26,588 nt of DNA from Candidatus Heimdallarchaeota archaeon (lineage in GTDB: Archaea > Asgardarchaeota > Heimdallarchaeia > Heimdallarchaeales > Heimdallarchaeaceae), in assembly GCA_016840095.1 (NCBI GenBank), contig JAEOSZ010000074.1:1-26588 (forward strand). Direction: 5' to 3'. Below, in pieces: positions 5,081 to 25,167 of this stretch. The stretch's first letter is position 1. Each line of letters opens with the position of its first letter. The position numbers were made by a program, and so were the translations under genes. Below the pieces are notes generated by a model that saw only the letters and a list, made by a program, of their open reading frames with translations, searched no databases and had not been told where the DNA came from.

Positions 5081-5108
5081 ATGATGAGTTTTTGTCATGT
5101 AGTCATAT
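5081..5108 (-). repeat. Inverted repeat copy at the tnpB 3' end
   Basis: Reverse complement ATATGACTACATGACAAAAACTCATCAT matches 6487-6514 at 23/28 positions (18 of the first 19). Confidence 0.75.
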
Positions 5109-5240
5109 AAACTTTACATCGTTGAGCATGTTTCATAGTCGATGTGGGTATCATTCCTGGTGGGTCCACACACACCCTACATGGATACATCACGTACCCT
5201 CCTACCCCATCAGCACCTCTGAGAGGAAGTGCATTAGGAT
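5081..5240 (-). ncRNA. Putative omegaRNA/reRNA overlapping the tnpB 3' end (boundaries approximate)
   Basis: This is the established location for TnpB guide RNAs. The minus strand has stems CCTCT-C-AGAGG and ACATCG...CGATGT, and the protein tail after NADVN looks poorly conserved. Confidence 0.45.
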
Positions 5241-6405
5241 CGCTTTTAATTAGAATATTGTACGCAGCATTCACATCAGCATTAACTTTGTAACCTTGAG
5301 TAGAAGTGAACATTCCACGAGAAGAACGTCTACCGGCATAAGTTGATCGTTTCTGAGGGAACTCATTGTCTAGAAAACTACTCTTGGAAGTATAGTTCTC
5401 AAGTACAGTATCAACGAGAATCCCTCGTTCTTCCGCTTTATACTTCAACTGTTGGATGATTTTCAGAAAGGGAATATTAACAAACAGCTGGGTGGTCTTC
5501 TTCCCCAGATTAACCTGTTGTTTCCATTTAGGATTATACCCTACAATCACTTCTTGAAGCTCTCGTTCAACAAATACCTTGACCAAATAAGTTGTCAATT
5601 GATGAAGAGCGTTCTTGAGTTTCTTCCTATATTTCTCACGCAATTTATAGTAAGCTGATCCATACATTAACTTCTGCTGGTTTTTCAATCTTTTTTTCTG
5701 CTGCTGCACGTACCGTGCTCGTAATTCTTTCTGCTTCTTTTGATAAAATTGGATAATACTTTTGATCCCTTTTCCATGGTCCTTGACAACAATCGGTTGG
5801 TTTCCGAGGTTATCCACGAAGGCCACAATATTCTTAGTCCCTAAATCTATAGCTCCCTTTCTAGTTCTTTTTCTCACTTGCTTCGAAAGGGATTTTTCAT
5901 AAACAATTTCTAGAGTGTACCCAACCTGTCTAGGTACTACTCTTACTTCTTTCAATCTACATCTAGCTGTTAAACGAGTTTTGTAGTAAAATCCTACTTT
6001 CCTGGGTAGGATTACCCACCCATTCCTTAATCTAGTTTGTTGGTTGGTTACAATCGCTACTCCTTCTCCATCCTTAGGTTTGTATCGTGGAGCTTTGGGT
6101 TGTCCTAGAAACTTCTCAGGATGAGCTTTCCATTCTTTTAGTGCCTGAAAATACGCCTTCCAATTTCTCACCAACAGTTTGAGCGTATGTTGAGCTGTAT
6201 GTGCTGGGAGAACTGTGTAACAATCTTCAGGCTTGAGTAGTCTATTGAGCTCGTAATAGTTTAGAAATTTGTTGTTTTTAGTAAGAGATTGTTTTATGAG
6301 ATAATTTGTTCGATTGTAGAGATTCTTCACTTGATGACACAGTTTACCTAAAGCTGGTGTAGACGGCAGTTCTATACACTCTACTCTCCACACTAGTGTC
6401 ATCAT
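5095..6405 (-). CDS. tnpB: TnpB RNA-guided endonuclease (IS200/IS605/IS1341-type), RuvC-II-rearranged, zinc-finger-less subtype
   Basis: KNLYN N-terminal motif, RuvC-I AIDLG, VIVGYN..WKQ, LKYKAEERGI, ENYTSKSSFLD, RGMF and RuvC-III NADVNAAYNI. Confidence 0.92.
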   Translation of the reverse strand: MMTLVWRVECIELPSTPALGKLCHQVKNLYNRTNYLIKQSLTKNNKFLNYYELNRLLKPEDCYTVLPAHTAQHTLKLLVRNWKAYFQALKEWKAHPEKFLGQPKAPRYKPKDGEGVAIVTNQQTRLRNGWVILPRKVGFYYKTRLTARCRLKEVRVVPRQVGYTLEIVYEKSLSKQVRKRTRKGAIDLGTKNIVAFVDNLGNQPIVVKDHGKGIKSIIQFYQKKQKELRARYVQQQKKRLKNQQKLMYGSAYYKLREKYRKKLKNALHQLTTYLVKVFVERELQEVIVGYNPKWKQQVNLGKKTTQLFVNIPFLKIIQQLKYKAEERGILVDTVLENYTSKSSFLDNEFPQKRSTYAGRRSSRGMFTSTQGYKVNADVNAAYNILIKSDPNALPLRGADGVGGYVMYPCRVCVDPPGMIPTSTMKHAQRCKVYMTT

Positions 6406-6900: not shown

Positions 6901-9318
6901 TCAATGCACTTTCTTTCTTCTTATAACTATCATTATGAAGATGGTTAATAGAAGGCTTGTTGATAAAAACAGTTCAAAGTGAGTCCTCTCAATTGGAGAT
7001 TCAGTTTCAGTAATGTTACTAATGTGAAACACAATGAAAGAACAAATCGGAACTGTGTAATCGAAATTTGATTCTAATTTCATCTCACTTATTTCCAGTA
7101 AATTGCCATTTTCATAAATTGTAACATTGGCTTTCGAATACTCAGGTACATCAATTCCACTGTCAATTAGCAATTTCTTCAAATTTCCACTCCACTCGAG
7201 ACTACCCATTCTTCTATTTGAAAATACTAAAGCAATTTCTCCTTTGCTGTTTCTAAATCCTTGAACTGCACCAAATGGTACATAAATTGTTTTATCATAC
7301 TGCGTTAATATTTGAATTGGGCTACCTTCCCACTCTATAGGAAATAGAAGATCACCGTCTCTGAAGAAACTGTAGTTGTCGATTTTTCTTGTATTATATG
7401 CGTTAGAAACAATTGAAAAAGGATTAGGATCAAATGAATGAACGCTGGGCATACCTGTTGATCCAGGAATATATCCTCTTAACACCCTTTCACTGATAGC
7501 CCAAATGAAATGATTCATTGAAGTTGGATGAATATCTGCCCAACCACCAAATGAAGTATATTTGTGATAAACATAGCTAAATAATGGAATAGATTTTCCA
7601 TTAGGAAACCAACCATGTACTCCTAAATCAAAGCTTAATTGATAAATCCAGAATTGATCCAGGTATCGTAAATAAGTTTCAAGGATATTCTCTGAACTCA
7701 TAATTGTTTCATTATTTATCGCTCTTAGTTCTTGTCTTACATCTGCTAATAGCTGATTTTGTGCTTCCTGCCACCATGATCCTCCTCCTGGAGGGTGTGT
7801 AGTTACATTTCTGTAATCAAATTGTGGCGAAGCAACTGAAATTTGATCAAGATAAACACCGTCTGCTCCAAAAAACTCGATCGCTCGTTTTGTAAAATTC
7901 TTAACTGTTTCTTGCCACCATTCTGATGCAGGATCAGGAAGTGCAGCTGTAAAATAAGGATTATAGGTTTCAGTATAAATATCATCATAAAATCCAGTCA
8001 TATATTGAGTATTGTTTGCATAGGTATCTGTAGTGACATCAACTAATCTACCATTGAAATATAGCATTACCTTAGCAGATTTGCTGTGAGCATCTGCCAT
8101 TCCATACAACAAGGCCAAATCACCATCGATAGGAGGGTAATATTCAGGAAAATAACGATCATGACCACCTTTTCCCCACGCCCACCATTCGATCAAAAGA
8201 TTATCTGATAAACCCCAGTTATGTAAACTACTAGCTAGAAGTCCTATGTTATCAACTGTATCACCTTCTAAGATTATTTCACCTGTTCCATGATCAGTTG
8301 AATATGAACTTCCTTTCCAGACATAATCGATTTTTTTCAACCAAGTAGGTGTATCATTTCTCAATCCAACAGGACCTTTATCTACATACCATTGTTCAGT
8401 TGCCCATTCCTTGTATATTTCTGCACCTTCAGCCCAGCTATTTCCTTTATACCCTTGTAGTGTAACCCAATAATCCATAGTAAAGTTATTTGATTTCTCA
8501 AATCTCATGTTATCTGCTGTATGAGTAATTTGAGCATGAATGGTCTTCTTGACCCAATTATCACCACCAATTCCAAATTCCTTATGTCTACTGCTGCTAT
8601 CATACGATGAAAGAACAAAACCTCCTACCTTAGGCTCTACTAGAACAATGAATTGCATCGACATGGTTCCAGGATATTCTCTATAAAATTCATAATCCAA
8701 TATTGAGTTGATTGCATTTTCTACCAACCATCCTGTTCTGTCTGGAAACGCGATCTGTTCAATAGATGGATCTCTCCCCCATCCTTTGATACCAGAAATA
8801 TGAGGTACAGTTGCTTTGCTTATTCCAGGATGGTTCTCACTTGAAGTTATATTGATATTGAAATTGACACCAATTTGTGGTTCATCTAATTGAATAGTCA
8901 AAATAACATTCATATATTCTGAATCGATAAGAACTTGATATTCTAGTTCAACCTTGCTTGAACTTATAATAGAATAGACGAAGTTGGAACTCCAGGATGA
9001 ATCATACCATCTCCCATCTATTAATTCAAAGCTCCAGAGATATCCTATCTCTTCTGAATCTAATTCTATTTCTTTTGAAGTGAGAATATTTTTTATTGAA
9101 GAAATGGAACCTTTATTTCCTAGATCAAGAATCATCTCTATTGTTGTACTATTTAGAACCAAAGAATCTCCATCAACATCGATTTGTTGCTTTACAGAGC
9201 TATTATTGTTGGATTCCAATAAGTTTCCTATTTCAGCTTTGGATTGTGAGGCTCCATTTGGAAGAATAACTAGCGAAAATAGAATAATCAAAAGGAGAGT
9301 ATATGGTGTTGCTTTCAT
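6901..9318 (-). CDS. Secreted, C-terminally anchored putative glycoside hydrolase (DUF6259-like TIM barrel)
   Basis: Signal peptide; Trp/Tyr-rich barrel with YFPEYYP, MLYFNGR, GADGVYLDQI, HPPGGGSWW and SSEN; C-terminal TM helix plus RRKK. Confidence 0.7.
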   Translation of the reverse strand: MKATPYTLLLIILFSLVILPNGASQSKAEIGNLLESNNNSSVKQQIDVDGDSLVLNSTTIEMILDLGNKGSISSIKNILTSKEIELDSEEIGYLWSFELIDGRWYDSSWSSNFVYSIISSSKVELEYQVLIDSEYMNVILTIQLDEPQIGVNFNINITSSENHPGISKATVPHISGIKGWGRDPSIEQIAFPDRTGWLVENAINSILDYEFYREYPGTMSMQFIVLVEPKVGGFVLSSYDSSSRHKEFGIGGDNWVKKTIHAQITHTADNMRFEKSNNFTMDYWVTLQGYKGNSWAEGAEIYKEWATEQWYVDKGPVGLRNDTPTWLKKIDYVWKGSSYSTDHGTGEIILEGDTVDNIGLLASSLHNWGLSDNLLIEWWAWGKGGHDRYFPEYYPPIDGDLALLYGMADAHSKSAKVMLYFNGRLVDVTTDTYANNTQYMTGFYDDIYTETYNPYFTAALPDPASEWWQETVKNFTKRAIEFFGADGVYLDQISVASPQFDYRNVTTHPPGGGSWWQEAQNQLLADVRQELRAINNETIMSSENILETYLRYLDQFWIYQLSFDLGVHGWFPNGKSIPLFSYVYHKYTSFGGWADIHPTSMNHFIWAISERVLRGYIPGSTGMPSVHSFDPNPFSIVSNAYNTRKIDNYSFFRDGDLLFPIEWEGSPIQILTQYDKTIYVPFGAVQGFRNSKGEIALVFSNRRMGSLEWSGNLKKLLIDSGIDVPEYSKANVTIYENGNLLEISEMKLESNFDYTVPICSFIVFHISNITETESPIERTHFELFLSTSLLLTIFIMIVIRRKKVH

Positions 9319-9539: not shown

Positions 9540-11093
9540 CTATTGATTCTTTCTTCTTCTATTTATTACCGGAACTGCTAGGATTGATATAAGAGCCATC
9601 AAAATAGATATTGTTAATGCGAAACTCGATTTCTTTGGAAGCTCTTGTGCTTCAAAGATTAGTACCATTTCATTGTTCTCTTCAGATACTTCATCTAATT
9701 CACTATCTATATCCAAGGTTAACACTGCATTAACAGTTTCAGGTTGCTCAGGAGTATAAGAAATGATTACTTCATAGCCTTCATTGATATCTAAAGGTGG
9801 AATTATAGCATATTGAGTCCCTTCTGCACCTTCATACTTTAATCGGGTTTCTACAGTTATGTTTTGCTCTCCAGTATTTCTTACCATGATAGGAACTTCG
9901 AAAGTTTCATTCCAGTATTTAGTATATTTTATTGGTAAAGATTCAAAACTTAAATCTACTTTGTCTACTTTGTTTTTAACATATTGATCCATAACGGAGT
10001 AATCCTTTCTATATGTTATAGTTTGTAATTTGTTCTCATCAACTTCGAAGATGACAAAATTATAATCTGCTTCCATATATACTGAGAAGGGTAATTGTTG
10101 TTGAGGTAGTGGATTATACAATCTACTACCTGCTCCACCTGAGATGATATAAGTTACATTATTCAGAAACATCCTCTCATATCCATGCTCATGACCCATA
10201 ACAACAACATCAACCTGGTATGCTTCAAAAATTGGAACGAATGTTTCGTTAATTAATTTATACCATTCAGATAGTTCATAATGTCTAGGAAATGATGAAA
10301 ATGGTGGTCTGTGCATCATTACAACTGTCCACAAGGCATCATCATTTGCTGCTAAATCCGCTTCTAACCATGCAGCTTGATTATCATAGTCTCCACCTAG
10401 ATCTTCATATCCTTCATAATATGTATGAAGAACTGGAAAATGAATTGGTCCATAGTCAAAGGAGTAAAATTCTTCTCCACCAGGAAGTGCAAAGAATTCA
10501 TAATAATAGGAGTGGTTCTTTTCATGATTACCCATCGTTGTCATAAAAGGAGTGTCAACTGTTATTCTTCTAAAAGAATGAAACCAGTCATACCATTCTG
10601 TTACTTCAGATGATATTTCAACAAAGTCTCCAGTATATAATGAAAAATCGACTGTTATCGGATCAATAGCATTAATTATTTCATATCTTGCAGGAGTGCT
10701 ACTTTGAGAATCACCAAAATCCAAAAATTTGGTATAATTGCCTGTTCTCCCAGTTCTGAATAGATAATCAGGACTCCAAGTAGTCCCATCTCCCACTCTG
10801 TAATGATAAAAAGTCTCAGGTGTTAGTCCAGTTATTTCTACATGATGCCATTTTCCAGCTACTCCTTCTTCTTGACTTCCATAAGAAGAATCCAAACCAT
10901 ATTGGACAATGGAAGAAGTACTAACATCAGTCATCCAACTCATTGTCATAGTTGTTTTAGGATCATGTTGCCAAGTAAGATGAAGATGTTGAACATCAAA
11001 GTCAGCTGCTTGTAAATTTATCAAATTATTAGTTATTGGAACTAAAAAACTAAGTATTAAAACCAAAGCAAAAGCTTTCCTTAATATTTGCAT
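9540..11093 (-). CDS. Purple acid phosphatase-like metallophosphoesterase with N-terminal FN3-like domain, CARDB-like domain and C-terminal membrane anchor
   Basis: Signal peptide; HLTW..DPKTTMTMSW...HHVEITGLTPETFYHYRVG; FGDSQ, GDFV, GNHE, HRPP and GHEH metal motifs; VRNTG...DEVSEENN (CARDB); TM plus RRRK. Confidence 0.88.
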   Translation of the reverse strand: MQILRKAFALVLILSFLVPITNNLINLQAADFDVQHLHLTWQHDPKTTMTMSWMTDVSTSSIVQYGLDSSYGSQEEGVAGKWHHVEITGLTPETFYHYRVGDGTTWSPDYLFRTGRTGNYTKFLDFGDSQSSTPARYEIINAIDPITVDFSLYTGDFVEISSEVTEWYDWFHSFRRITVDTPFMTTMGNHEKNHSYYYEFFALPGGEEFYSFDYGPIHFPVLHTYYEGYEDLGGDYDNQAAWLEADLAANDDALWTVVMMHRPPFSSFPRHYELSEWYKLINETFVPIFEAYQVDVVVMGHEHGYERMFLNNVTYIISGGAGSRLYNPLPQQQLPFSVYMEADYNFVIFEVDENKLQTITYRKDYSVMDQYVKNKVDKVDLSFESLPIKYTKYWNETFEVPIMVRNTGEQNITVETRLKYEGAEGTQYAIIPPLDINEGYEVIISYTPEQPETVNAVLTLDIDSELDEVSEENNEMVLIFEAQELPKKSSFALTISILMALISILAVPVINRRRKNQ

Positions 11094-11418: not shown

Positions 11419-12162
11419 TCAGGTATTCAGATTATTTGACTGATCTATCTGAATTTCGATGTAAGAATGATTCGAAGATTCAAGTTTTAGCAATCCTGTT
11501 TCTGAAATTCCTATGCATTTGAATACAGAAGATTGGTATTCAAATTTCCTGTTTATATCCAATGAATTTTCATTGAAAAAAGAAACTAACTTCTCATAAT
11601 CTTCTGCTATAGTTAAATTAACAAAACTAAACAAGGATTCAGTAATAAGTTTTACAAGATCATCCCTTTTGACTGAATGATGAATAATATCTTCAAGAAA
11701 CACAGCTGGAATGCAATCTAGATTTTGAGAAATATCACTTTCTCGTGAAATATTAACTCCTATTCCTAATAGTAGAAAATCTGCTTTTTTAGTCACTAAC
11801 TCTATTAAAATTCCTCCCAATTTTCTATTTTTATAGTATATATCATTCGGCCATTTTACAAGAATTTCAACAGAGTAAATATTCTTGAGAACTTGTTGAA
11901 CTCCAAGAGCTGCTGCATAGTGTAAAAAACGTAATTGTATACTGTTTAGTTGTGACATAAGAGGAAATGCATAGGTCATGTAAAGACCTCCTAATGGCGA
12001 AAACCATGCTGAATCATATCTTCCTCTTCCTCTTGTTTGTTGATTTGAGATTACTAAAATTGGTTTTGCAGTATCTTCTAAGATATGATCTAAAACCACA
12101 TCCATAGTAGATGACACTTCTTTATAATGAACAGTGTTCATAGATTCAACTTTATATGCCAC
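11419..12162 (-). CDS. birA: Biotin--[acyl-CoA carboxylase] ligase (no N-terminal HTH)
   Basis: VSSTM, QTRGRGR, WFSPLGGLYMT, KWPNDIY, KLGGILIE and GIGVN motifs. Confidence 0.93.
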   Translation of the reverse strand: MAYKVESMNTVHYKEVSSTMDVVLDHILEDTAKPILVISNQQTRGRGRYDSAWFSPLGGLYMTYAFPLMSQLNSIQLRFLHYAAALGVQQVLKNIYSVEILVKWPNDIYYKNRKLGGILIELVTKKADFLLLGIGVNISRESDISQNLDCIPAVFLEDIIHHSVKRDDLVKLITESLFSFVNLTIAEDYEKLVSFFNENSLDINRKFEYQSSVFKCIGISETGLLKLESSNHSYIEIQIDQSNNLNT

Positions 12163-12258: not shown

Positions 12259-13836
12259 ATGTATCTAAATAATAATAATAGAGCTAATGAGAAAGAAGAA
12301 TCAAATTATGATAAGCTCTTAGATAAAAGACAAAAAAGTCTAGAAGGAGGAGGGAAACAAAGAATAGAGAATCAACACAAGAAGGGTAAACTAACTGCAC
12401 GAGAAAGAATTGAAGTGCTAGTTGATGAAAACTCATTCGTTGAAATTGACTCTCTTGTAACACATCAAGCTCAAAAATTCAATTTAGAAAATAACAAGCC
12501 TTTAGGTGATGGAGTGGTTACTGGTCATGCAATTATCGCTGAAAGGCAAGTTTTCATTTATAGTCAAGATTTCACTATATTTGGGGGGAGTTTGGGTAGG
12601 GCTCAGGCAACTAAGATATGTAAAGTAATGGATCTAGCAATAAAAACTGGAAATCCAATTATTGGTATCTTAGATTCAGGTGGTGCAAGAATACAAGAGG
12701 GGGTTGCTTCACTAGCTGGTTATGGGGATATATTCTATAGAAATACTCAAGCATCTGGAGTTATTCCTCAAATTTCAATTATTCTAGGTCCATGTGCAGG
12801 AGGAGCAGTTTATTCTCCAGCTTTAACAGATTTTGTTTTAATGAACAAAGAAAATTCCTTCATGTTTGTAACCGGTCCAGAAGTTGTAAAAGCTGTTACT
12901 GGTGAAGAAATATCTTTTTACGATTTAGGTGGAAGTGGAGTTCATAGCAGGAAAACTGGTGTTAGTCATCTAGTTGGAGAAAATGAAGAAAAAACCTTAG
13001 ACATTGCTAGAAAACTTTTATCCTATCTTCCCTCAAATAATCTTTGTGATCCTCCATTTAATCCTGAGATTATAGAGGAAATTGATCAACATTCTCTCCG
13101 TGAGATAATCCCTGATTTGGAAAATGAACCTTATGATATGAAAGAAATCATAAGCACTATATTTGATTCTGATAGCTTTCTTGAATTGAATGAAGACTGG
13201 GCAAAAAACATAATCGTTGGTTTTGCTCGAATACAAGGATTATCAACAGGTATAATAGCTAACCAGCCTCTCTTCTTAGGAGGAGCAATTGACTATAATG
13301 CAGCAGATAAAGCATCACGGTTTATTCGTTTTTGTGATTCATTCAACATACCTGTTTTAACACTAGTTGATGTTCCTGGTTTCCTTCCTGGTGTTAAACA
13401 AGAACATGAAGGAATTATTCGTCATGGAGCAAAGCTACTTTATGCTTATTCAGAAGCATCAGTTCCAAAGATTTCGATTATTGTACGAAAAGCATATGGT
13501 GGAGCTTACATAGTGATGAGTTCTAAACATCTGGGAACAGATATTAATCTAGCTTGGCCATCAGCAGAGATCGCTGTTATGGGAGCAGAAGGTGCATGTA
13601 GGATTCTCTATAAGAACAAATTGAAAGATGCGGAGAATCCAGAAGAAGTTCTTGAAGAATTTACTGCTGAATTCAAAGAAGAGTTTGCTAATCCATATCA
13701 AGCTGCAGAATTAGGTTATGTTGACAAGGTAATATTTCCCGAAGAAACTCGAAAGGAAATTATTACTTCATTACTTTTACTTCAAAATAAAAGAGAACAG
13801 TCTCCTAAAAGAAAACATGGAATTTCTCCTGTCTGA
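12259..13836 (+). CDS. pccB: Acyl-CoA (acetyl/propionyl-CoA) carboxylase carboxyltransferase subunit
   Basis: QHKKGKLTARERI, GDGVVTG, QDFTIFGGSLG, DSGGARIQEG, GPCAGGAVYSPA, VDVPGFLPG, RKAYGGAY and KRKHG motifs. Confidence 0.93.
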   Translation: MYLNNNNRANEKEESNYDKLLDKRQKSLEGGGKQRIENQHKKGKLTARERIEVLVDENSFVEIDSLVTHQAQKFNLENNKPLGDGVVTGHAIIAERQVFIYSQDFTIFGGSLGRAQATKICKVMDLAIKTGNPIIGILDSGGARIQEGVASLAGYGDIFYRNTQASGVIPQISIILGPCAGGAVYSPALTDFVLMNKENSFMFVTGPEVVKAVTGEEISFYDLGGSGVHSRKTGVSHLVGENEEKTLDIARKLLSYLPSNNLCDPPFNPEIIEEIDQHSLREIIPDLENEPYDMKEIISTIFDSDSFLELNEDWAKNIIVGFARIQGLSTGIIANQPLFLGGAIDYNAADKASRFIRFCDSFNIPVLTLVDVPGFLPGVKQEHEGIIRHGAKLLYAYSEASVPKISIIVRKAYGGAYIVMSSKHLGTDINLAWPSAEIAVMGAEGACRILYKNKLKDAENPEEVLEEFTAEFKEEFANPYQAAELGYVDKVIFPEETRKEIITSLLLLQNKREQSPKRKHGISPV

Positions 13837-13845
13837 GGTTTTATT

Positions 13846-16800
13846 ATGAAAACAAAAAAACAATTAGAAAAAGAACTGAAACTAAATAGTATTATTTGGG
13901 GTTATTCTCCAAAAGGCATAAAAGATCCTCAACTCGCAATTGAATTGTCTAAAAATGGTGGTGTAGGTTTAGTTGATCTTGAAGGTTTAGACAAAGAAAT
14001 ATCCAAGCAAGTTATTGAAACATGTTTTAACGAAATACCTTCTGATAAATTGTGGGGAGTTAGATTTCCTGATGTTGAATCATTATCTGTTCTCTCAGAG
14101 GTAGATTTACTTCCAATAGGTATAATTGCATTTGAAGTTGACCAGAGTAACTTAGCAAAGATAAGTTCTAAAATCAAATGGAAGGTAGCTGAAGTTGTTA
14201 ATCTAGAAGCAGCTCATAAGAGAACTGAATGGGCTGATTTCTTTTTAGCAAAGGGATTTGAGTCAGGTGGAAAGATAGGAGAACAGACCTCCTTCATACT
14301 AATTCAAGAATTCCATAAAGCTGGATATCCTTTTATCATACAAGGTGGATTTGGTGTTTACAATATAGTTTCTGCTATAGTAGGAGGAGCTCTAGGTGTT
14401 GTACTTGAAGGACAACTCTATTTACTTCCTGAATGTCCTCTTAACGTTTCAACTAAGGAGTACCTTGAGAGCTTAGATGAGAGTGATTCTTATATTGTAG
14501 GAGAAAGCTTTGCAACTAAATACCGCTTGATAGGTAAAATAGCAAATAATGTTATTCGAGATCTGAAAAAGTTTGAAAAAGATAATTCAGATAGTGAAGA
14601 AGAAGTTTTACTAGACTATCTGAGAGATATTTCAAATCAGTCTCAATATTTTGATTCAGAAGAAATAAAACATTCATTCTTACCTAGTGACTTAGGTTTT
14701 TGTTTTGGTCCCTTTATTAGAGATATGTTCAACAATCTAGTAGTTTTCCTAGTTTCAATTCAAGATATAATAGATGATCAAATAAGTAAAATTTCTAAAG
14801 ATTGGCCTTTTAAAGAAGGAAGTGAGTTTGCACAAAGCTTGGATATTAGGTTTCCAATAATTCAAGGTCCAATGGCAAATATAACTGATAACACAGAATT
14901 TGCTATCAAAGTTGCGAAAGAAGGAGCTTTACCTGTATTAGCAATGGGTGGTCTCCTAAAAGAAGAAACAGAAATATTATTTGAAGAATTTTCAGCAAAA
15001 TTTCCACAAAATCAAAACTATGCTGGTGGAATTATTGGTCTAGAAGTGATGAAAGAGAGAAGAGAAGCTCATATTTCATTGATGGAACAATACAAGACTC
15101 CATTATGTCTTATTGCAGCTGGTTCTATTCAGTTAGCGGTCAGAATTCAGAAAACTGGTATGAGAACGATTGTTCATACTCCTGCATTAAGTTTGTTTAA
15201 AGAAGCTATCAAAAATAATCTTGATTATCTGATTTTAGAAGGTAGTGAATGCGGAGGGCATATTGGAAATCTTACATCAATGATACTTTGGGAAACAGTA
15301 CTTCAATATTTTACAGTCAATGTTTCAGAATTACCTGATGAAGTAAACATTGTTTTTGCTGGAGGTATAGGTGATGAACTAGGTGCAGCAATGGTTGCAG
15401 CAATGCTTGGTGTTCATCTTGATATGATAAATCCTGGAATTCAAATGGGGACTGCTTACTTACTAACAGATGAGATTGTTAACACTAGAGCTCTTACTCC
15501 TTTATACCAAGAAAAATTACTAAATTCATCAGTAACAAGAATTATTGGTTCTACAGTTAATACTAGAGCAAGAACCATTCCGTCTAAGTTTGTTACAAAA
15601 ACTATCGAAGATGAGAGAAGCAGAATTAAAGAAGGAATATCAATCAGTGAAAGAAAAAAACTCTACGAGCAAGATAATCTAGGTGCATTGAGAATTGCAG
15701 CTAAAGCTGAAATATGGAACAATGAACATACGCCAGGAGGAGATTCAACTCAATTTTTGTTTGTTGATGAAAAGAAACAAGAATCCTTAGGATGCTTTAT
15801 GGCCGGTGAAATCATTAGTTTGAAACGAAATGTTGTTCAAATTAAAGATCTACATTATGATATTGTAGTTGCAGGAAAAGAAGTAATAAAACCAATAAAG
15901 AACATGCTTAGAAGAGATAAAGAGGTTGAATTTGAAAAAGAAAGCTCAGAAGTTACATTACAGGAAATATCAACACAAAATAGAATAGCAATAGTTGGTT
16001 TAGGTTGTATATTTCCAGATTCTTCTAATATCAATGAATACTGGGAAAACATTATCGATAAGAAGTACTCAATTACTGAGGTTTCTGACTCGAGATGGAA
16101 CAAATCAATACATTATGATGATGATAAAACTGCTAGAAATAAAACCTATTCGAAAATAGGTGCATTCATTAAAGATTACAAGTTTAATCCTTTAAATTAT
16201 CGAATCCCTCCCAAAATTGCTGATAATATGGATGATGTTCAGAAGTGGTCTCTTGATGCAGCAAAACAAGCTTTAGAAGATGCAGGATTACCTACAGACG
16301 GTAAAACAAGACTACCAATACCTGTGATTGTTGGAAATGCTTTAGGAGGGGAAAACCAGAGGGTAACAAACAAAGCAATTTTTGCTCCTGAATTCCTTTA
16401 TGAGCTAGAACAAGATAACGTTTTCCAATCTCTTGAAAAAGAAAAACAAAGTTCTCTACTTGAAAATCTCAAATTAAAATACAATTCCTTGTTTCCACCG
16501 ATTAATGAAGATTCTATGCCAGGAGAGCTATCAAATATAATTTCAGGACGAATAGCTAATGTGTTCAATCTTACAGGAAAATCTATGACTACTGATGCAG
16601 CTTGTGCTTCTAGTATAGCTGCACTCGATACAGCTGTAAAGTCACTAACTTCTGGTGACTTTGATTTAGTATTAGTAGGAGGAGCTGATAGATCAATGGA
16701 TGTAGTATCTTACATCAAATTCAGCAAAATTGGTGCTCTTTCCTCAACTGGATCACGTCCATTTGATAATAGTGCAGATGGCTTTGTCATGGGCGAAGGA

Positions 16801-19800
16801 GTAGGATTCATGGTTTTAAAACGACTAGAAGATGCTATTCGAGATAACAATAAAATTTATGCAATAATCTCATCTATAGGAGCATCTTCAGATGGAAAAG
16901 GTAAAGGTATTACTGCACCTAATCCTGAAGGACAAAAACAAGCAATAGATATGGCTCTAAAATTAGCCGATTTGACTGTTAATGATATTGATTACATAGA
17001 AGCTCATGGCACATCGACAATTGTAGGAGATGCAGTGGAATTAAAAGTGCTAGAAGAGATTTTTCAGAATAGATCAATTTCAAAGAAAGTTGCTGTAGGA
17101 TCTATTAAAAGTCAGATAGGCCACTTAAAAGGTGCGGCAGGTATTGCTTCTCTTATCAAAACAACGCTTTCCATTTATCACAGTAAATTACCTCCTACTG
17201 TAAATGTTGATACTCTAACTTCAAGTATAGATTGGGATAAATCTCATTTAGTTGTAAATACTGAACCTAAAAACTGGGAAACTAGTAAAAAATCAATCAG
17301 AAGAGCTGGAGTTTCTGCTTTCGGATTTGGTGGAACCAATTATCATACTATTCTAGAAGAATATTCTCCTGACAAGATGAAGTACTCTCTTGAGAGCAGT
17401 TCTCAAGCAGTACCTAAACAAACAATAACAGCTAGTTCAAACGAAATATCGTTACAAAGTATTAAACCAAAATTATGTTTCATGTTTACTGGACAAGGAA
17501 GTCAATATTTAGGGATGGCAAAACATCTTTACGAAAATTCTCCTATAGTGGCTCAAACATTTGAAAAAGCAGAGAAGATATGGTACAATTACTACAGTTA
17601 TAGTATTAAAGAAATAATTTTTGGATCAGAGAAGCTTTCAGATGAAGCCAATAAAAAGAGACTTACAGACACTAAATTTACTCAACCAGCTCTGTTCATT
17701 GTTGATGTTGCACTAGCTCGACTTCTAGCCGAGGAAGGATTGAAACCTGATATAGTAGCTGGTCACAGCCTTGGAGAATATGTAGCTCTAGTTGTTTCTG
17801 GAGCAATGTCCTTCGAAGATGGGTTACGAGCAGTTATTGAACGTGGAAGAGCCATGAGTAGAGCTGGAAATACAATTCCAGGGGCCATGGCAGCAATATT
17901 AGCACCTATTGAAATTGTAAAAGATATAGTCAAAAAAGTTGAAGATTCTTATCTTACAATAGCTAATTACAATTCCACTTCACAGACTGTAGTTTCTGGA
18001 GAAATTGAAGCAATAGAGGAAGTTCTAGAACTTTCTGAGAAGAAGGGAGTAAGAGCAGTTCGATTGAATGTGTCAACCGCATTTCATTCACAGATTGTGA
18101 AGAGTGTTGAAGAGGAAATGGAAAAAGAACTCTCGAAAATTGAATTCAGTACACCCTCAATTCCTGTTTTCAGCAATGTAACTAGTAAAGAGTATCCAAA
18201 TGATTCTGATTTAATAAGAAAACATCTTGTAGAGCAAATTAGTTCATCTGTTAGATGGGTTGAAGAAATTGAGAATATGTATAAAGCAGGAGCAAGATAC
18301 TTCGTTGAAGTTGGACCCAAAAAAGCTTTGTTCTCTTTTGCTAAAGATGTTCTAAAAGATAAGAAAGATATCTTTGTATTCAATACTTTAACCGCAAAAG
18401 ATGATGATATTAATAAAATCAAAGACACTGTTACTAAAATTGTTCAATCTGGTTTTGAGAATGGTATAACAGAAACAATCACTCATTCTAGTATAATCGA
18501 AAAATCAATAGTTGAAAAGGAAATACCAATAAAAACTACAGAAAAAACTGATTTTAGTTCATTCTTAAATCTGAATCCAGATTTACTTGAAAACTTCTTG
18601 AAGTCAGGTTATGATATTTATTCAACATTTTTGGGTGATAATAAACAGAAAGCTGAAATTGCAAGAATTTCTACTATAAGTGAAGAATCTATTGGTATCA
18701 CTGGTATTGGTGTTGGATTGCCAGGAAAGGGTCATAGTGTTTTTGATGATGATAACATTGATTTAATACTCTCAGGCCATAATTTTATAGACTCTATTGA
18801 TGAAGAATTAAAACAACACATTTTAGATAAGAACATTAATCGATTAGTCAAATCAGCAGATGGTTCTGCTTCTTTTGAAGAAATTAATGAATTATCTCAG
18901 GTTATAAGTTTAGCTGGTCAAATAGGTGAATTTGACCCAATAAATGATTTTAAACTTGATGAGAAATTTTTGCAGTCCTTAGATATATCTTTCACTCTTG
19001 CTATATGTGCTGGCCTAGAAGCTCTTGCAGATGCTGGAATTCCTTTAGTGAAATCCTCAATCACTACAACTACAGGGAAGGTTCTTGAAGGTGATTGGGT
19101 TCTTCCAGAGGAACTCCAAGAAGAAACTGGTATAATTTTTGCTTCTGCATTTCCTGGATATGATAATCTGATAAAAGAAATAGAAGAATATCAATCGACA
19201 GAGGACAAAAAGAGTTTCAGAAGAAATTTTCTATTTAGAATTCTGTCTATGGGACATTCACAGTTTGCTCAGTTAATAAAAGCTAAAGGGCCTAATACAC
19301 AAATAAATGCAGCTTGTGCATCTACTACTCAAGCCATAGGTGTTGCAGAAGACTGGATAAAAACAGGTCGATGCAATAGAGTTATTGTGATAGCAGCTGA
19401 TGATGCAGCAGGTGAAAATCTACTCCCCTGGATCGGCTCAGGATTCCTAGTTGCTGGAGGTGTTTCAACAGAAAGTGATGTTGAAAAAGCTGCTATTCCA
19501 TTTGGAAAAAACAGACATGGGTTGATTATAGGATCAGCTGCGGCAGGGATAATAATCGAAAATGAATCAGCTTATTCTAAAAGAGGAATTAAACCTATTG
19601 TTGACTTGATAGGATCTCAGTTTACAAATAGTGCATTCCATGGTTCAAGATTAGATGTGAAGCATATTACAAAGGAATTCGAAAGTTTTGTAAGTAAGAT
19701 AGAACAGAAGCATAATCTAAGTAGAAAAGAAATAGCTGAAGACGGGATTTTTGTGTCTCATGAGACATATACACCTGCTAGAGGTGGTAGTGCAGAATCT

Positions 19801-22800
19801 GAAATTGAAGCCTTGAAAAACGTTTTTGGAAACGATGCATCTAAAATGACTATAGTAAATACTAAAGGTTTTACAGGTCATGCAATGGGAGCAGGAATTG
19901 AAGAATGTGTAGCCATTAAATCTATGGAAAAAGGTATTATTCCACCTATAGCAAATTATTCCCAGATAGATCCTGCTTTCTCCGAATTAAAATTCTCTAA
20001 AGGAGAAAATAGACAAGTGAAGTATGCTCTAAGATTGGCTGCAGGATTTGGTTCTCAGATTGCTTTCACAGCTTTCAGATTGAACACCGCTGAGGATAGA
20101 TATGATTTGAATTATCATGAGAAGTGGTTGAATCATCTAGGTGGAAGTCTTGATGATGGTTTTCTAGATGGTCGAGTTTTGAAGATGAAAACCAAACAAA
20201 GGAGGATTGAACCAACAGAAGGTGTTCTTGATAGAAAACCAGTTTTACCAAAAGTTGAAACTGGTAACATTCTTCCTGAATTAATCAATATTATTTCTGA
20301 TATTACAGGATATGAATCTAATTTGATTGAAGCAGATATGCATCTAGAAGAAGATCTGGGTATTGATACCATTAAACAAGCAGAGATTTTTGGCTTTGTG
20401 AGAGATAAATGGAACCTAGAACTAGATGAAACTCTAAGCCTTGCTGATTTCACAACTCCGAATAAAATAGTAACTTACATTCAAGGTAAACTACCTCAAG
20501 ATTCTACAGAAATAAGTCCTAAGAGTTCTCAAGAAACGCATGTTCCAGGTACCTCTAATCTAAAGGAAAGAATAAAGGAAATTGTTTCAGAAGCAACAGG
20601 ATATGAGCCAGATTTAATCGAAGATGATATGGATTTAGAAGAAGATTTGGGGATAGATACTATCAAGCAAGCTGAGATATTTGGGGATATCAGAGAAATC
20701 TACGATTTAGTTATGGATGAAACTGTGAGTTTAGCAGAATTTAGAACAATTCAAGATATAGCTAATTATGTAACACGATATGGAGCTTTAACACATACTG
20801 ATTCTTCAGAACCTATGAAGGAAGAACAAACCATAGTTCAGACTAAAGAGGATATTCATGAGGAAAAAGATGTCAAGATTGAAAAATTAGTTTTATCTCC
20901 AGCTGTTTTAGATAAAGAGAAAGCATACAGAGTGAAATTATCTGATTTAAACTTATTAGTAATTAATCTATCATCCTCAAGAACACAATCAATACTAGAA
21001 GAATTTGAGAAGAAGAAAATTCAATACAATGAATTTAACGTGTTCAATGACTCTATTTCTGAGCTAAAAGATAAAGACTTTGATACATTTGTTATTGTAT
21101 TACCAGATGAGGAATCTACTCCTGGTTATATTGATCAAGAAATCTATGAAAAGATGTTCAATCTTTTTCAAGCTATAGACCTAAAATCTGACCAAAGAAT
21201 ATTAGGTATATCTAATGAAACATTCTTTGGTTTCGAGAAAGATGCAAAACCAATTTCAGGTGGAATTACTGGATTTATCAAAACTCTCGGACTGGAATAT
21301 GAAATGAAGGTCAAGCATCTTTATTCTTCTAAAAACAATGAAATACTACAAGAACTAATGTATTGGGATGATTTCATTGAAGTATCCTACAATAAGAAAT
21401 TACGATATACAATTGTCTATTCTGAAATTACTGAAGTTGTTACCAAATCATCTAAACTAGATCTCAAAAATGATGATTTGTTATTAGTTACTGGAGGAGG
21501 AAGAGGAATTACTTTCAAGTGTCTTGAAGCATTGTGTACAATTGTTAAACCTAAAGTGGCAATACTAGGAATTGAAGACATTTCTCACTGCACTCCTGAA
21601 GTTTTATCCTTATCTGAAGAAGAGTTACAAGAACACAAAGAGAAAATGATTGAGGAGTTGCGATCTACAGAAGAGAAAGTAACACCTGTAATGATAGATA
21701 AGAAATGGAATACTTTTATCTTTGGTTTAGAAGTAGCAAAGAATCTTCAAAAACTTGAGAAACTGAAGATAAGAGCACAATATCATAGAGTTGATGTAAC
21801 TAAGAAAACAGATGTTAAGAAAGCAATCACTAAGCTTGAGAAACAGCTTGAAACAAAGGTTACACACATTATTCATGGAGCAGGACTTGAAGAATCAAAA
21901 TCTTTCAAGAAGAAAAAATTGAGTTTCTCAAAATTAATAGTATCTGTTAAAGTTGAAGGTATATGGAACATTCTAAATTCAGTTGACAAGGAAAATCTAA
22001 GACGAGTTGTCTGTTTTGCTTCAATAGCTGGAAGATTTGGAAACAGAGGTCAAATAGATTACTCTTTTGCCAATGGTTATTTGTCTCGACTTTGTTGGAT
22101 GCTAACTCAACAGGGAATACCTTCAATTGCTTGTGATTGGAGCGCTTGGGGAGGTGTAGGAATGGCAACAAGAGGTTCTATTATGAAGATTTTATCTTCT
22201 TTTGGAATTAATCCTATCTCACTTGAAACAGGAACTAGTGTATTTGTAAAACTATTTCTAAATGAAATTGGAAAAGAAGTAGTCGTATCTAATGGACTGG
22301 GTCCCTTTGAACTAGCTAATGTACCACTACAAACTATTTCTGATAAGGCTTATCCTTTAATTAATCTCCTCGAATATTCTGATTCAAAGTTTAAAGGTTA
22401 TCATCATCTTTCAGTGGATACTGACTTATATATGTTAGATCATCAAATACAAAATGTTCCATTTTTCCCAGGAGTAATGGGAATAGAAATGTTCTCTGAA
22501 ATGTTTCAGATTATTACTCTTTCAAAACCATTTGTATTGAAAGAGATTGAATTTGCATCTGCTTTAAAACTTCAGAATAACCAACCTAAAGATATCTTTG
22601 TTGAATACGATCCTTCAACCAATAAAATGTCTTTACAATCTGTTTTTATTCCAAAAAATGATGAGAAACTGAAACGAAATATTGAACACTTTAAACTACA
22701 AGTTGGAAATGATATTAGAAAACGGACAACACGAAAATCAAGTTTTCTATATGATGATTCTCACTTACCTCTTATGGTTGCAGAAGAAATCTATAATATA

Positions 22801-23931
22801 TTTTTCCATGGTAAAAGTTTCCAAGTATTGGATAAACTACTGGAATTATCTGATGAAACTGCAATAACCATTGTTAAAATTCCTGAAGAGAAGATCTTTT
22901 CTGAAAAAGGTAGTAAAGTTTTGATTAATCCAAGAACAATAGAAGCCGCTTTACAAACATCAGGGCTCTATGATTTGATAGTTAATAACGAGTCATCCCT
23001 ACCTTCAACTATTGATAAAATTACATTTTACAGTAATAAGAAACCTCACCACATTGTATCTCAATTTAAAATGAAGGATTCTGATTATAGCTACTTTGAT
23101 GTTGAAGTATTTGATGAAAGTGGGTACTTGATTCTTTCATTAGAAGGATTAGGAATGATTCACACCCAATTCTCATTTACAGAAGATTCAGAAAGTATTG
23201 AGAAACTGAAAACACTTAAAGAATATTGGCAAATTTCCAATTCATTTCCAGATAATCTGATGAAGATCACTCCTATTCAAATGGTAGCTACACAGTATGA
23301 AACTCAACCAAAAACAATGATGAAATACCTATCACCTGAAGAGAAAGCTTCCTTTGATAAGAAGAAAAGCGAAAAGAGAAAAATTGAATATCTTGCTGGA
23401 GTGCTATCAGCCAAACAGCTGATAAGAGATATTTCAGAAGATCCAAAAACAATTAAATCAACAGAAATTCGAAAAACTGCTAAAGGACAACCATATATCT
23501 ATGATTCTAAGAAGAAAGAGAAAAGTAAACTCAATCTTTCAATAACTCACTCCAGTGAATTTGCTATTGCAGTAGTTGGAAAGAGTCCAATTGGAGTAGA
23601 TATTGAAAAGATAGAGGACAGAAGTGAATCTTTCTATAAAGAAGCTTTTACAGAAAAGGAAAGAAATCAAATCTCTTCTAATTCAGAATTGGGAACTGTT
23701 TACTGGACAATAAAAGAAGCTATAACAAAAGCTCTAGGAGAGGGATTGAATCTAAGCTTACATGATATTGAAATCACTGCAGATGAGAAGAAATCTTCAT
23801 ACACAGTAGATTTTTCATCTAAAGCTGCAGAAACGGTACCATATTCTCCAGAATCCTTTGAAATAACTAGTAAGAAATTCCAAAATTATACTCTTAGTTA
23901 TTGTGAGATAAAATCTGAGGACAAGAAATGA
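13846..23931 (+). CDS. Iterative type I polyketide/fatty-acid megasynthase, PfaA/PksE-related: ER'(degenerate)-ER(FabK/PfaD TIM barrel)-KS-AT-KS-ACP-ACP-KR-DH-PPTase
   Basis: ER: PIIQGPMA, EGSECGGHIG, FAGGIGD, IQMGTAYL. KS1: DAACASS, EAHGTST, GHLKGAAG. AT: FTGQGSQY, GHSLGE, TAFHS. KS2: NAACASTT, SHETYT, GHAMG. ACP x2: DLGIDTIKQAEIF. KR: VTGGGRGI, HGAG, GNRGQIDYSFAN. DH: DHQIQNVPFFPG, IEAALQ. PPTase: SITHS, IGVDIE, WTIKEA. GAGGT Shine-Dalgarno upstream. Confidence 0.93.
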   Translation: MKTKKQLEKELKLNSIIWGYSPKGIKDPQLAIELSKNGGVGLVDLEGLDKEISKQVIETCFNEIPSDKLWGVRFPDVESLSVLSEVDLLPIGIIAFEVDQSNLAKISSKIKWKVAEVVNLEAAHKRTEWADFFLAKGFESGGKIGEQTSFILIQEFHKAGYPFIIQGGFGVYNIVSAIVGGALGVVLEGQLYLLPECPLNVSTKEYLESLDESDSYIVGESFATKYRLIGKIANNVIRDLKKFEKDNSDSEEEVLLDYLRDISNQSQYFDSEEIKHSFLPSDLGFCFGPFIRDMFNNLVVFLVSIQDIIDDQISKISKDWPFKEGSEFAQSLDIRFPIIQGPMANITDNTEFAIKVAKEGALPVLAMGGLLKEETEILFEEFSAKFPQNQNYAGGIIGLEVMKERREAHISLMEQYKTPLCLIAAGSIQLAVRIQKTGMRTIVHTPALSLFKEAIKNNLDYLILEGSECGGHIGNLTSMILWETVLQYFTVNVSELPDEVNIVFAGGIGDELGAAMVAAMLGVHLDMINPGIQMGTAYLLTDEIVNTRALTPLYQEKLLNSSVTRIIGSTVNTRARTIPSKFVTKTIEDERSRIKEGISISERKKLYEQDNLGALRIAAKAEIWNNEHTPGGDSTQFLFVDEKKQESLGCFMAGEIISLKRNVVQIKDLHYDIVVAGKEVIKPIKNMLRRDKEVEFEKESSEVTLQEISTQNRIAIVGLGCIFPDSSNINEYWENIIDKKYSITEVSDSRWNKSIHYDDDKTARNKTYSKIGAFIKDYKFNPLNYRIPPKIADNMDDVQKWSLDAAKQALEDAGLPTDGKTRLPIPVIVGNALGGENQRVTNKAIFAPEFLYELEQDNVFQSLEKEKQSSLLENLKLKYNSLFPPINEDSMPGELSNIISGRIANVFNLTGKSMTTDAACASSIAALDTAVKSLTSGDFDLVLVGGADRSMDVVSYIKFSKIGALSSTGSRPFDNSADGFVMGEGVGFMVLKRLEDAIRDNNKIYAIISSIGASSDGKGKGITAPNPEGQKQAIDMALKLADLTVNDIDYIEAHGTSTIVGDAVELKVLEEIFQNRSISKKVAVGSIKSQIGHLKGAAGIASLIKTTLSIYHSKLPPTVNVDTLTSSIDWDKSHLVVNTEPKNWETSKKSIRRAGVSAFGFGGTNYHTILEEYSPDKMKYSLESSSQAVPKQTITASSNEISLQSIKPKLCFMFTGQGSQYLGMAKHLYENSPIVAQTFEKAEKIWYNYYSYSIKEIIFGSEKLSDEANKKRLTDTKFTQPALFIVDVALARLLAEEGLKPDIVAGHSLGEYVALVVSGAMSFEDGLRAVIERGRAMSRAGNTIPGAMAAILAPIEIVKDIVKKVEDSYLTIANYNSTSQTVVSGEIEAIEEVLELSEKKGVRAVRLNVSTAFHSQIVKSVEEEMEKELSKIEFSTPSIPVFSNVTSKEYPNDSDLIRKHLVEQISSSVRWVEEIENMYKAGARYFVEVGPKKALFSFAKDVLKDKKDIFVFNTLTAKDDDINKIKDTVTKIVQSGFENGITETITHSSIIEKSIVEKEIPIKTTEKTDFSSFLNLNPDLLENFLKSGYDIYSTFLGDNKQKAEIARISTISEESIGITGIGVGLPGKGHSVFDDDNIDLILSGHNFIDSIDEELKQHILDKNINRLVKSADGSASFEEINELSQVISLAGQIGEFDPINDFKLDEKFLQSLDISFTLAICAGLEALADAGIPLVKSSITTTTGKVLEGDWVLPEELQEETGIIFASAFPGYDNLIKEIEEYQSTEDKKSFRRNFLFRILSMGHSQFAQLIKAKGPNTQINAACASTTQAIGVAEDWIKTGRCNRVIVIAADDAAGENLLPWIGSGFLVAGGVSTESDVEKAAIPFGKNRHGLIIGSAAAGIIIENESAYSKRGIKPIVDLIGSQFTNSAFHGSRLDVKHITKEFESFVSKIEQKHNLSRKEIAEDGIFVSHETYTPARGGSAESEIEALKNVFGNDASKMTIVNTKGFTGHAMGAGIEECVAIKSMEKGIIPPIANYSQIDPAFSELKFSKGENRQVKYALRLAAGFGSQIAFTAFRLNTAEDRYDLNYHEKWLNHLGGSLDDGFLDGRVLKMKTKQRRIEPTEGVLDRKPVLPKVETGNILPELINIISDITGYESNLIEADMHLEEDLGIDTIKQAEIFGFVRDKWNLELDETLSLADFTTPNKIVTYIQGKLPQDSTEISPKSSQETHVPGTSNLKERIKEIVSEATGYEPDLIEDDMDLEEDLGIDTIKQAEIFGDIREIYDLVMDETVSLAEFRTIQDIANYVTRYGALTHTDSSEPMKEEQTIVQTKEDIHEEKDVKIEKLVLSPAVLDKEKAYRVKLSDLNLLVINLSSSRTQSILEEFEKKKIQYNEFNVFNDSISELKDKDFDTFVIVLPDEESTPGYIDQEIYEKMFNLFQAIDLKSDQRILGISNETFFGFEKDAKPISGGITGFIKTLGLEYEMKVKHLYSSKNNEILQELMYWDDFIEVSYNKKLRYTIVYSEITEVVTKSSKLDLKNDDLLLVTGGGRGITFKCLEALCTIVKPKVAILGIEDISHCTPEVLSLSEEELQEHKEKMIEELRSTEEKVTPVMIDKKWNTFIFGLEVAKNLQKLEKLKIRAQYHRVDVTKKTDVKKAITKLEKQLETKVTHIIHGAGLEESKSFKKKKLSFSKLIVSVKVEGIWNILNSVDKENLRRVVCFASIAGRFGNRGQIDYSFANGYLSRLCWMLTQQGIPSIACDWSAWGGVGMATRGSIMKILSSFGINPISLETGTSVFVKLFLNEIGKEVVVSNGLGPFELANVPLQTISDKAYPLINLLEYSDSKFKGYHHLSVDTDLYMLDHQIQNVPFFPGVMGIEMFSEMFQIITLSKPFVLKEIEFASALKLQNNQPKDIFVEYDPSTNKMSLQSVFIPKNDEKLKRNIEHFKLQVGNDIRKRTTRKSSFLYDDSHLPLMVAEEIYNIFFHGKSFQVLDKLLELSDETAITIVKIPEEKIFSEKGSKVLINPRTIEAALQTSGLYDLIVNNESSLPSTIDKITFYSNKKPHHIVSQFKMKDSDYSYFDVEVFDESGYLILSLEGLGMIHTQFSFTEDSESIEKLKTLKEYWQISNSFPDNLMKITPIQMVATQYETQPKTMMKYLSPEEKASFDKKKSEKRKIEYLAGVLSAKQLIRDISEDPKTIKSTEIRKTAKGQPYIYDSKKKEKSKLNLSITHSSEFAIAVVGKSPIGVDIEKIEDRSESFYKEAFTEKERNQISSNSELGTVYWTIKEAITKALGEGLNLSLHDIEITADEKKSSYTVDFSSKAAETVPYSPESFEITSKKFQNYTLSYCEIKSEDKK

Positions 23932-24689
23932 AAATAGAAAATACCAATATTAACTTCAGAAATGAAACAATAAATGGTGTACTTTTTCTACCAAATAGAA
24001 AAAAACCTTCACCTCTTGTGATTCATCTGAATGGAATGCCTGGTTTAGAACCAGAAACTGAAGGTGAAAGATTCGCTCAAGAGTTGAACCATTTTGGTAT
24101 TGCCTACTATGCATTCGATTATACTGGAGTAAGGAACAGTTCAGGTTTGTTTGAATACTACTATTCACAAGAAAACATAAACACCATAATATCCTTTTTA
24201 GTTCATCATCCTAAGATCTTACCAAATAAAATAGCTCTACTTGGTGAAAGTTTTGGAGGGGCAATGGCTTTGTGTCATGCAGTTCGAGATTCTAGAGTAC
24301 AGTGTTTAGCAATACGATCACCAGTATATGATACTAAACAGATACCTAATCTGAAGATATTTGATGGTTTGTCTTTAATGTGGAAGTTGAATAAGCAAAT
24401 GAGATTTCCAGAAGTAAATTTGAAATCCTTCTTTCAAAATCAATCATCACATTATAATCCATCTAAATTGATATCAGAACTTAAGTGTCCAATTAGGATG
24501 ATAACTGGAACTAAAGATGAGATTCTTGATGCCAAGGAAATAGAAAAATGGTTTAAAAAACTTCCAGAAGATTTAGACAAAGACTTCCAAATTATTGAAA
24601 ATGCTGATCATAACTTCTCTAACAAAGTTCATTTTCAGAAAATGAAAAACTACATTATTGATTTCTTTAAACAGCAGTTGATTAGTTAG
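23928..24689 (+). CDS. Alpha/beta-fold hydrolase, candidate thioesterase/product-release enzyme
   Basis: GESFGG nucleophile elbow, GTKDEI Asp and NADHNF His; ATGA overlap with the synthase stop. Confidence 0.85.
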   Translation: MKIENTNINFRNETINGVLFLPNRKKPSPLVIHLNGMPGLEPETEGERFAQELNHFGIAYYAFDYTGVRNSSGLFEYYYSQENINTIISFLVHHPKILPNKIALLGESFGGAMALCHAVRDSRVQCLAIRSPVYDTKQIPNLKIFDGLSLMWKLNKQMRFPEVNLKSFFQNQSSHYNPSKLISELKCPIRMITGTKDEILDAKEIEKWFKKLPEDLDKDFQIIENADHNFSNKVHFQKMKNYIIDFFKQQLIS

Positions 24690-25167
24690 GAAGAACCTCA
24701 AATTCAACAAGTCGTTGATCTTGCTCTACATTAGCATCTTCTTTTACATAGATTTTGATTATCCTTCCTCTATCCGGAGAAAAAATTCTGTTGCGCATTT
24801 TCATAGCTTCAAGAATCATTAATTCGTGATCCTTTTCCACGATTTCTCCTTCTTTAGCTAGAATTTGAATGATTTTACCTGGAATTGGAGCTTTAATAGA
24901 GATTTTTTTCTCTTTTTGAGAATCAAGATTAATGCTTCTCTTTGGAATGTAAGGTTTAGTAGATATACTCACTTCTTCTCCATCAACAATGAAGTTGTCT
25001 TCGGTAACCTCTACAGTAAAAGTGTGTTTATTAACTGTAACTTTATAGACCGATTTTATTTCTTGATCTACTGAAGCAACAAATATTTCACCATCTATAC
25101 TTAGGTTTCCATTTGGTAAAACCTCAAATATATAGTCATTTTCATTGAGTGTTACTTTTTTCTTCAA
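24682..25167 (-). CDS. accB: Biotin carboxyl carrier protein
   Basis: IKAPIPGKI...ILEAMKMRN biotinylation motif; TTG start with a GGTG Shine-Dalgarno. Confidence 0.92.
   Translation of the reverse strand: MKKKVTLNENDYIFEVLPNGNLSIDGEIFVASVDQEIKSVYKVTVNKHTFTVEVTEDNFIVDGEEVSISTKPYIPKRSINLDSQKEKKISIKAPIPGKIIQILAKEGEIVEKDHELMILEAMKMRNRIFSPDRGRIIKIYVKEDANVEQDQRLVEFEVLPN

Follow-up and report, generated by a model that had tools for sequence, protein, structure and literature searches.

Threonine in place of the phosphopantetheine-bearing serine in the carrier domains of a Heimdallarchaeota type I synthase and its relatives

The synthase and its domains

Contig JAEOSZ010000074.1 of a Candidatus Heimdallarchaeota archaeon (assembly GCA_016840095.1), analysed over its whole length of 26,588 nucleotides and called the window hereafter, encodes a 3361-amino-acid (aa) iterative type I synthase that resembles fatty acid and polyketide synthases (PKSs). 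The open reading frame (ORF; 13846..23931, + strand, as are all of its domains) has the order ER(degenerate)-ER-KS1-AT-KS2-ACP-ACP-KR-DH-PPTase, running from enoyl reductase (ER) barrels through ketosynthase (KS), acyltransferase (AT), acyl carrier protein (ACP), ketoreductase (KR) and dehydratase (DH) domains to a fused 4'-phosphopantetheinyl transferase (PPTase). Both ACPs have threonine at the position of the serine that bears phosphopantetheine, and this threonine is quite probably the residue that receives the arm. The synthase is Heimdallarchaeia-like, its closest loci being those of Candidatus Heimdallarchaeota metagenome-assembled genomes (MAGs), with 74-78% identity over the ACP region; the reads come from marine sediment metagenomes, and the source genome is 89% complete.

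Outside the carrier region, the synthase has the residues expected of a working enzyme. The second, FabK/PfaD-like ER barrel (14818..15915) has a His472 that is invariant in 40/40 relatives, KS1 (15979..17385) has an intact Cys920-His1054-His1093 triad, and Ser1308 and His1414 of the AT (17458..18435) are invariant in 112/112, as is His2866 of the DH (22348..23190). The KR region (20863..22335) has an intact Ser2726/Tyr2739/Asn2743 set. Likewise, KS2 (18667..20115) retains Cys1824-His1972-His2012 and is not a Cys-less chain-length factor (CLF). Across sets of 40 to 120 relatives, the Cys-His-His of both KS domains, the AT Ser-His, the KR Ser-Tyr-Asn, the DH His and the His of the second ER are invariant barring alignment gaps, and these near-invariant catalytic residues rule out decay of a dead gene. 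Since the KS2 triad in particular is retained in 119-120 of 120 relatives, KS2 is probably an active condensing domain. No second KS or AT was found in the 89%-complete genome besides those of the synthase.

The exception is the first ER barrel (13846-14820), which the preliminary description of this DNA, made from the letters alone, had called degenerate in an otherwise intact set of domains. This stands, as the barrel has Lys143 where the catalytic His is expected, in place of the His that is invariant in the second barrel. The position is variable in 45 relatives, and the barrel is still kept in Asgard proteins and in Desulfoluna. In Desulfoluna-type members (L011, P0017, P0366) KS1 and AT are separated by an additional KS-like domain, and the number of ACPs rises to as many as eight.

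Threonine at the attachment site

ACP1 (20266..20490, aa 2141-2215) and ACP2 (20557..20781, aa 2238-2312) both read G-I-D-T-I-K-Q, with threonine in place of the phosphopantetheine-bearing serine. The residue is Thr2175 in ACP1 (codon ACC, 20368..20370) and Thr2272 in ACP2 (codon ACT, 20659..20661), exactly where the preliminary description had placed it. The two domains are identical at 41 of 75 residues. Synonymous codon differences occur at 22 of these 41 positions and identical codons at the other 19, which makes the duplication that gave rise to ACP1 and ACP2 an old one. They are the only ACPs in the window, as had been noted; one further ORF with an ACP fold lies on a different contig.

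The argument that two different codons speak against a sequencing error also holds. Positions 20200-20690 are matched with 0 differences by a Logan contig from a second sample (S2) of the same study, which makes an error at the Thr codons very unlikely, and the two codons, the second-sample contig and the conservation of threonine in the family together rule it out. Recoding or editing of the Thr codons to Ser is likewise ruled out, as all four Thr codons are used at the site across distant taxa (ACT 31, ACG 29, ACC 24, ACA 23).

The domains are otherwise carrier proteins. Residues 2241-2309 of ACP2 match the Pfam PP-binding family (PF00550) with 45 bits against a cut-off of 20.8, and the threonine aligns with the Ser of PigH and of the Aquifex ACP; the invariant Ser that PF00550 has at the start of helix II is replaced by Thr in both domains. 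Modelled with AlphaFold2 (mean pLDDT 90.4), ACP2 forms helices at 2-16, 37-51 and 67-77 and superimposes on solved bacterial ACPs in Foldseek with a TM score of about 0.8 and a root-mean-square deviation of about 1.5 A. The threonine is model residue 37, the first of helix II. A role for it as the helix N-cap in a T-x-x-Q capping box is disfavoured, because helix II of the model begins with the Thr, which leaves the preceding Asp as the cap.

Threonine across the enzyme family

Threonine at this position is not a peculiarity of the source genome. Family members were found in Heimdall-, Loki- and Thorarchaeota, Thermoplasmatota, Desulfoluna, Actinobacteria, Chloroflexota, Saprospirales, Calditrichaeota and Spirochaetota. 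A first count gave Thr in 546/559 domains; the query included the ACPs, and as this biases the count, it was repeated with ACP-free queries. Of the 368 carrier domains retrieved by a KS2-domain query against representatives at 50% identity, 334 have Thr and 19 have Ser, the rest being a few degenerate copies with low scores; the proteins were all-Thr (110), all-Ser (5) or mixed (15). In the case of a Chloroflexota KS2 query, 404/404 carrier domains had Thr. Pooling distinct carrier domains of at least 55 bits gave 774 Thr, 25 Ser and no other residue (n=799); copies with residues other than Thr or Ser are degenerate throughout and score 44 bits or less. A search with KS1 alone returned multi-KS modular PKSs, used solely as a Ser background, and in these unrelated PKSs the site is Ser in 23/23.

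Selection for threonine, as first proposed for the one protein, is thus supported far beyond the source genome (774/799 intact family carrier domains). The sequences are related, so that the counts show breadth and not independent events. The motif around the Thr is far more fixed than in ordinary ACPs, and the carriers are present in 2-8 tandem copies per synthase. Several Asgard-clade proteins (P0066, P0091, P0102; L028, L038, L041) have degenerate first and last ACP-like copies around four intact Thr copies. In one Heimdall lineage (P0032, P0037, L020, L027) the flanking ACP copies carry Ser, in the arrangement S-T-S.

The Ser-bearing proteins occupy several separate tree positions, each nested among Thr lineages, and by parsimony the state changes 6 times on the tree of KS1 and 9 times on that of KS2. 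Ser is encoded by AGT or TCT in the cases observed, both of them one substitution from ACT. On trees rooted with a single outgroup KS, and with weak basal support, the Ser forms may be read as repeated reversions.

A second residue varies with the acceptor. The Gln three residues after the Thr (aa 2178 in ACP1, 20377..20379; aa 2275 in ACP2, 20668..20670) is near-fixed in Thr domains (771/774) and relaxed in Ser domains (11/25), having been lost in about three Ser lineages. This covariation suggests that the Gln is required only when the acceptor is Thr.

The phosphopantetheinyl transferase and the fusion

The fused PPTase (23263..23928) is of the Sfp type, being a single chain of ~230 aa in which the motifs G-x-D-x-E and W-x-x-K-E are present together with the His that binds CoA. 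His3235, Asp3252, Glu3254, Lys3290 and Glu3291 map to Sfp H90, D107, E109, K150 and E151, while Trp3287 lies at the position of Sfp W147, where Trp or Phe is found; the Asp, Glu and His are conserved in 47/47. Thus, the residues that bind Mg and coenzyme A (CoA) and those of catalysis align with Sfp-type enzymes (PDB 1QR0, 4MRT; human AASDHPPT 2CG5), from which this domain differs in being fused to the C-terminus of a synthase and in having, within the genome, no apparent substrate other than carriers with Thr. No further PPTase was found in the 89%-complete genome.

The preliminary description had suggested that modification of threonine could explain the fusion, and that homologues should be aligned for conservation of the Thr and for its co-occurrence with a fused PPTase. 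Conservation of the Thr was borne out, and its link to the fusion was not. The PPTase is fused in only 47/120 relatives in one set and 44/88 in another, and a fused PPTase is also present in two proteins whose carriers are all-Ser, P0254 of a Heimdallarchaeota MAG and P0375. Unfused Thr-only members and fused all-Ser proteins therefore rule out Thr as the cause of the fusion.

What accompanies Thr carriers is instead a PPTase of the same class. For instance, in Chloroploca, Saprospirales and Roseiflexus the gene of the Thr-only synthase is followed immediately by a PPTase gene of its own. In Desulfoluna, Kineosporiaceae and Calditrichaeota, no PPTase adjoins the Thr-only synthase within the flanks read, and their genomes each encode one of the same class (E <= 2e-34). 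All 5 bacterial genomes examined whose Thr-only synthases are unfused encode a same-class enzyme, and 3 of the 5 lie outside the query alignment. The threonine is a family-wide trait common to many bacteria, and not a local adaptation to the fusion.

Modification of threonine and alternative explanations

The observations to be accounted for are the residue, its position at the start of helix II of a carrier fold, its conservation, the presence and integrity of the PPTase, and the lack of an alternative acceptor. The explanation preferred here is that the cognate PPTase places 4'-phosphopantetheine on the Thr, after which ordinary iterative thioester chemistry leads to a reduced acyl product, and this is quite probably what happens. 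Flanking biotin carboxylase genes, which are present at the locus, would make malonyl-CoA or a similar extender. With CoA as the donor, the fused Sfp-type PPTase would attach 4'-phosphopantetheine to the hydroxyl of the Thr that opens helix II, and a fixed D-T-[VI]-K-Q-x-E surface, notably the covarying Gln, may help to present the secondary hydroxyl. The AT would then load the arm, and the two KS, the KR, the DH and the ER, whose catalytic residues are in place, would carry out chain extension and reduction, and the finished product may be released by the neighbouring hydrolase.

Several points weigh against this explanation. In Escherichia coli ACP, the S36T protein is unmodified, non-functional and cannot support growth (PMC3340395). 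The substitution is the same and at the same position; there it was engineered, whereas here it is the conserved natural state, and the E. coli result concerns a carrier/PPTase pair adapted to Ser. In addition, no PPTase residue was found to separate Thr-type from Ser-type partners in a comparison with few Ser cases. Two further conserved Thr in the same carrier domain also exchange mostly with Ser, so that Thr/Ser exchange alone is no proof of a reactive role. No paper on the motif or on Thr-linked phosphopantetheine was found in a literature search that fell short of most subscription journals. At 89% completeness, the genome assembly may also lack the gene of a further carrier.

The S36T result and the similar Thr/Ser pattern of the other conserved Thr would fit ACPs that stay unmodified as docking or scaffold domains, with catalytic domains that use CoA thioesters and a Thr kept for protein contact. 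Five ER-less bacterial loci are suggestive of such chemistry, in that an acyl-CoA dehydrogenase gene lies directly upstream of a synthase that starts at KS1 (L010:4324-5961, L012:4283-6004, L013:4265-5929, L014:4268-5935, L089:4350-5987). This family usually acts on CoA esters; ACP-acting members exist. However, unmodified carriers would leave an intact fused or neighbouring PPTase without a substrate, and they fit poorly with the retention of the AT Ser-His pair in 112/112 and with the amplification of the carriers to 2-8 tandem copies. In Pfa synthases, more ACPs give higher throughput (PMC3098273). Copies without Thr or Ser are, moreover, all degenerate (44 bits or less), and on balance unmodified ACPs are unlikely.

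The evidence pins the conserved hydroxyl and not the adduct, and the Thr might be the working residue for another group, such as a direct acyl ester or some other CoA-derived moiety, for which the unusually fixed motif around it could be cited. The partner enzyme is, however, a standard Sfp-type PPTase and both KS keep a thioester-handling Cys-His-His triad, so a different adduct is very unlikely.

A separate Ser-type carrier acting in trans could also be the real substrate of the PPTase. The genome is incomplete, and a free 80-aa protein with an ACP fold is encoded on another contig (L002:1480-1722, G000:C107) and is common in the genus. In 19 homologues from family f1, however, the site position is Lys, Glu, Asp, Asn and others, the nearby Ser of the source genome's copy is not conserved, the gene is unlinked to the synthase locus, and true Ser ACPs are only sporadic in relatives. 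A trans carrier, one of the options raised in the preliminary description, is weakened accordingly, since neither Ser nor Thr is conserved around the attachment site of the sole free ACP-like protein, which would be a poor carrier; this option is highly improbable. The free protein is conserved in genus and family (homologues L044-L061) and looks like a cofactor-less ACP mimic. Finally, an arm on another Ser within the domain is barely credible: ACP1 contains three Ser and ACP2 two, and there is no conserved alternative Ser among the 778 Thr domains, 159 of which have no Ser at all and in which the share of Ser stays at or below 28% in every column.

With regard to the ER-less loci, the acyl-CoA dehydrogenase of L012 is accompanied by electron transfer flavoprotein and an Fe-S protein. 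The ER-bearing Desulfoluna locus (L011) has no upstream acyl-CoA dehydrogenase, and an ER-less all-Ser locus (L088) is an exception to the pattern. The upstream dehydrogenase may replace the enoyl reductase in these loci.

It is likely that threonine-O-phosphopantetheine occurs naturally in a large family of lipid synthases from bacteria and archaea, as yet uncharacterised and found throughout the sampled Asgard genomes, and that a PPTase class particular to the family forms this link. The carrier-protein Ser is treated as invariant, and the S-to-T change serves as an inactivating control in E. coli (PMC3340395). If the arm is naturally linked to Thr, this would be a protein modification not described before that breaks the Ser-only rule for carrier proteins, and the carrier/PPTase pair could be orthogonal to AcpS and Sfp and so be usable as a labelling system. 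There is also a risk that annotators could wrongly call Thr carriers dead. This is the only acyl-chain synthase found in the source Asgard genome, and it is kept beside carboxylase genes in relatives. The locus is thus relevant to the question of fatty acyl chain synthesis in Asgard archaea, and a Thr-linked arm would point to an ACP-dependent route to such chains.

Comparison with known synthases

Among described systems, the Type R secondary lipid synthase cluster comes closest (Shulse & Allen 2011, PMC3098273); in it, a pfaA homologue of order KS-MAT-CLF-ACP(3-6)-KR is followed by a downstream PPTase, and the product is unknown; the word threonine occurs 0 times in that paper. The Heimdall synthase shares the order KS-MAT-second KS-like-tandem ACP-KR and the short S-h-x-H motif of the PPTase. 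Roseiflexus sp. proteins are 45-46% identical to it in both KS domains and have Thr ACPs only, one of them (P0446) being homologous in every core domain, and at one Roseiflexus sp. locus the genes of the synthase, the PPTase and the carboxylase follow one another. This comparison used Roseiflexus sp. proteins from MAGs, not those of the five named Type R reference strains. In contrast to Type R, the Heimdall protein has 2 ACPs, N-terminal ER barrels, a DH, a fused PPTase and a Cys-His-His triad in KS2, the domain called CLF in the Type R description. It thus has neither the 3-6 ACPs nor the separate downstream PPTase of Type R, traits which both vary across the family.

The best NCBIfam match is PfaA (TIGR02813), with which the synthase shares KS-AT, tandem ACPs, KR, DH and a dedicated PPTase (PfaE in that system). 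The score of 855.5 bits is, however, below the cut-off of 1010.1, a second KS lies between the AT and the ACPs, and Thr replaces Ser. No pfaB, pfaC or pfaD partner genes were found in the window. The Heimdall protein probably works like a Type R or PfaA synthase, but it is not PfaA.

Genomic neighbourhood

An acyl-CoA carboxyltransferase gene, presumably for extender supply (12259..13836, +), ends 9 bp upstream of the synthase, preceded by a BirA-type biotin-protein ligase (11419..12162, -). Downstream, an alpha/beta hydrolase with a G-x-S-x-G motif, a candidate thioesterase (23928..24689, +), overlaps the synthase stop, followed by a biotin carboxyl carrier protein (24682..25167, -) and a biotin carboxylase (25185..26588, -) that reaches the contig end. 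Carboxylase genes flank the synthase in the Asgard relatives examined; the hydrolase was observed as a neighbour in the host's own family only. Across 61 genomes of the class, a PP-binding match was found in 53 and a PPTase in 50, mostly within the long synthase ORF.

In one relative, a single-contig genome (G027), the synthase reading frame (L069:5350-16232) is short, at 2729 aa. Some 2.7 kb downstream there is another PPTase copy, almost identical to the first, and the hydrolase and biotin carboxyl carrier protein matches are repeated as well, representing either a local duplication or an assembly problem.

Further upstream in the window are a TnpB/Cas12f-like IS605 OrfB gene (436 aa; 5095-6405, -), a DUF6259 protein (805 aa; 6901-9318, -) and a purple acid phosphatase with a CARDB domain (9540-11093, -). 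The phosphatase also precedes the synthase locus in close relatives.
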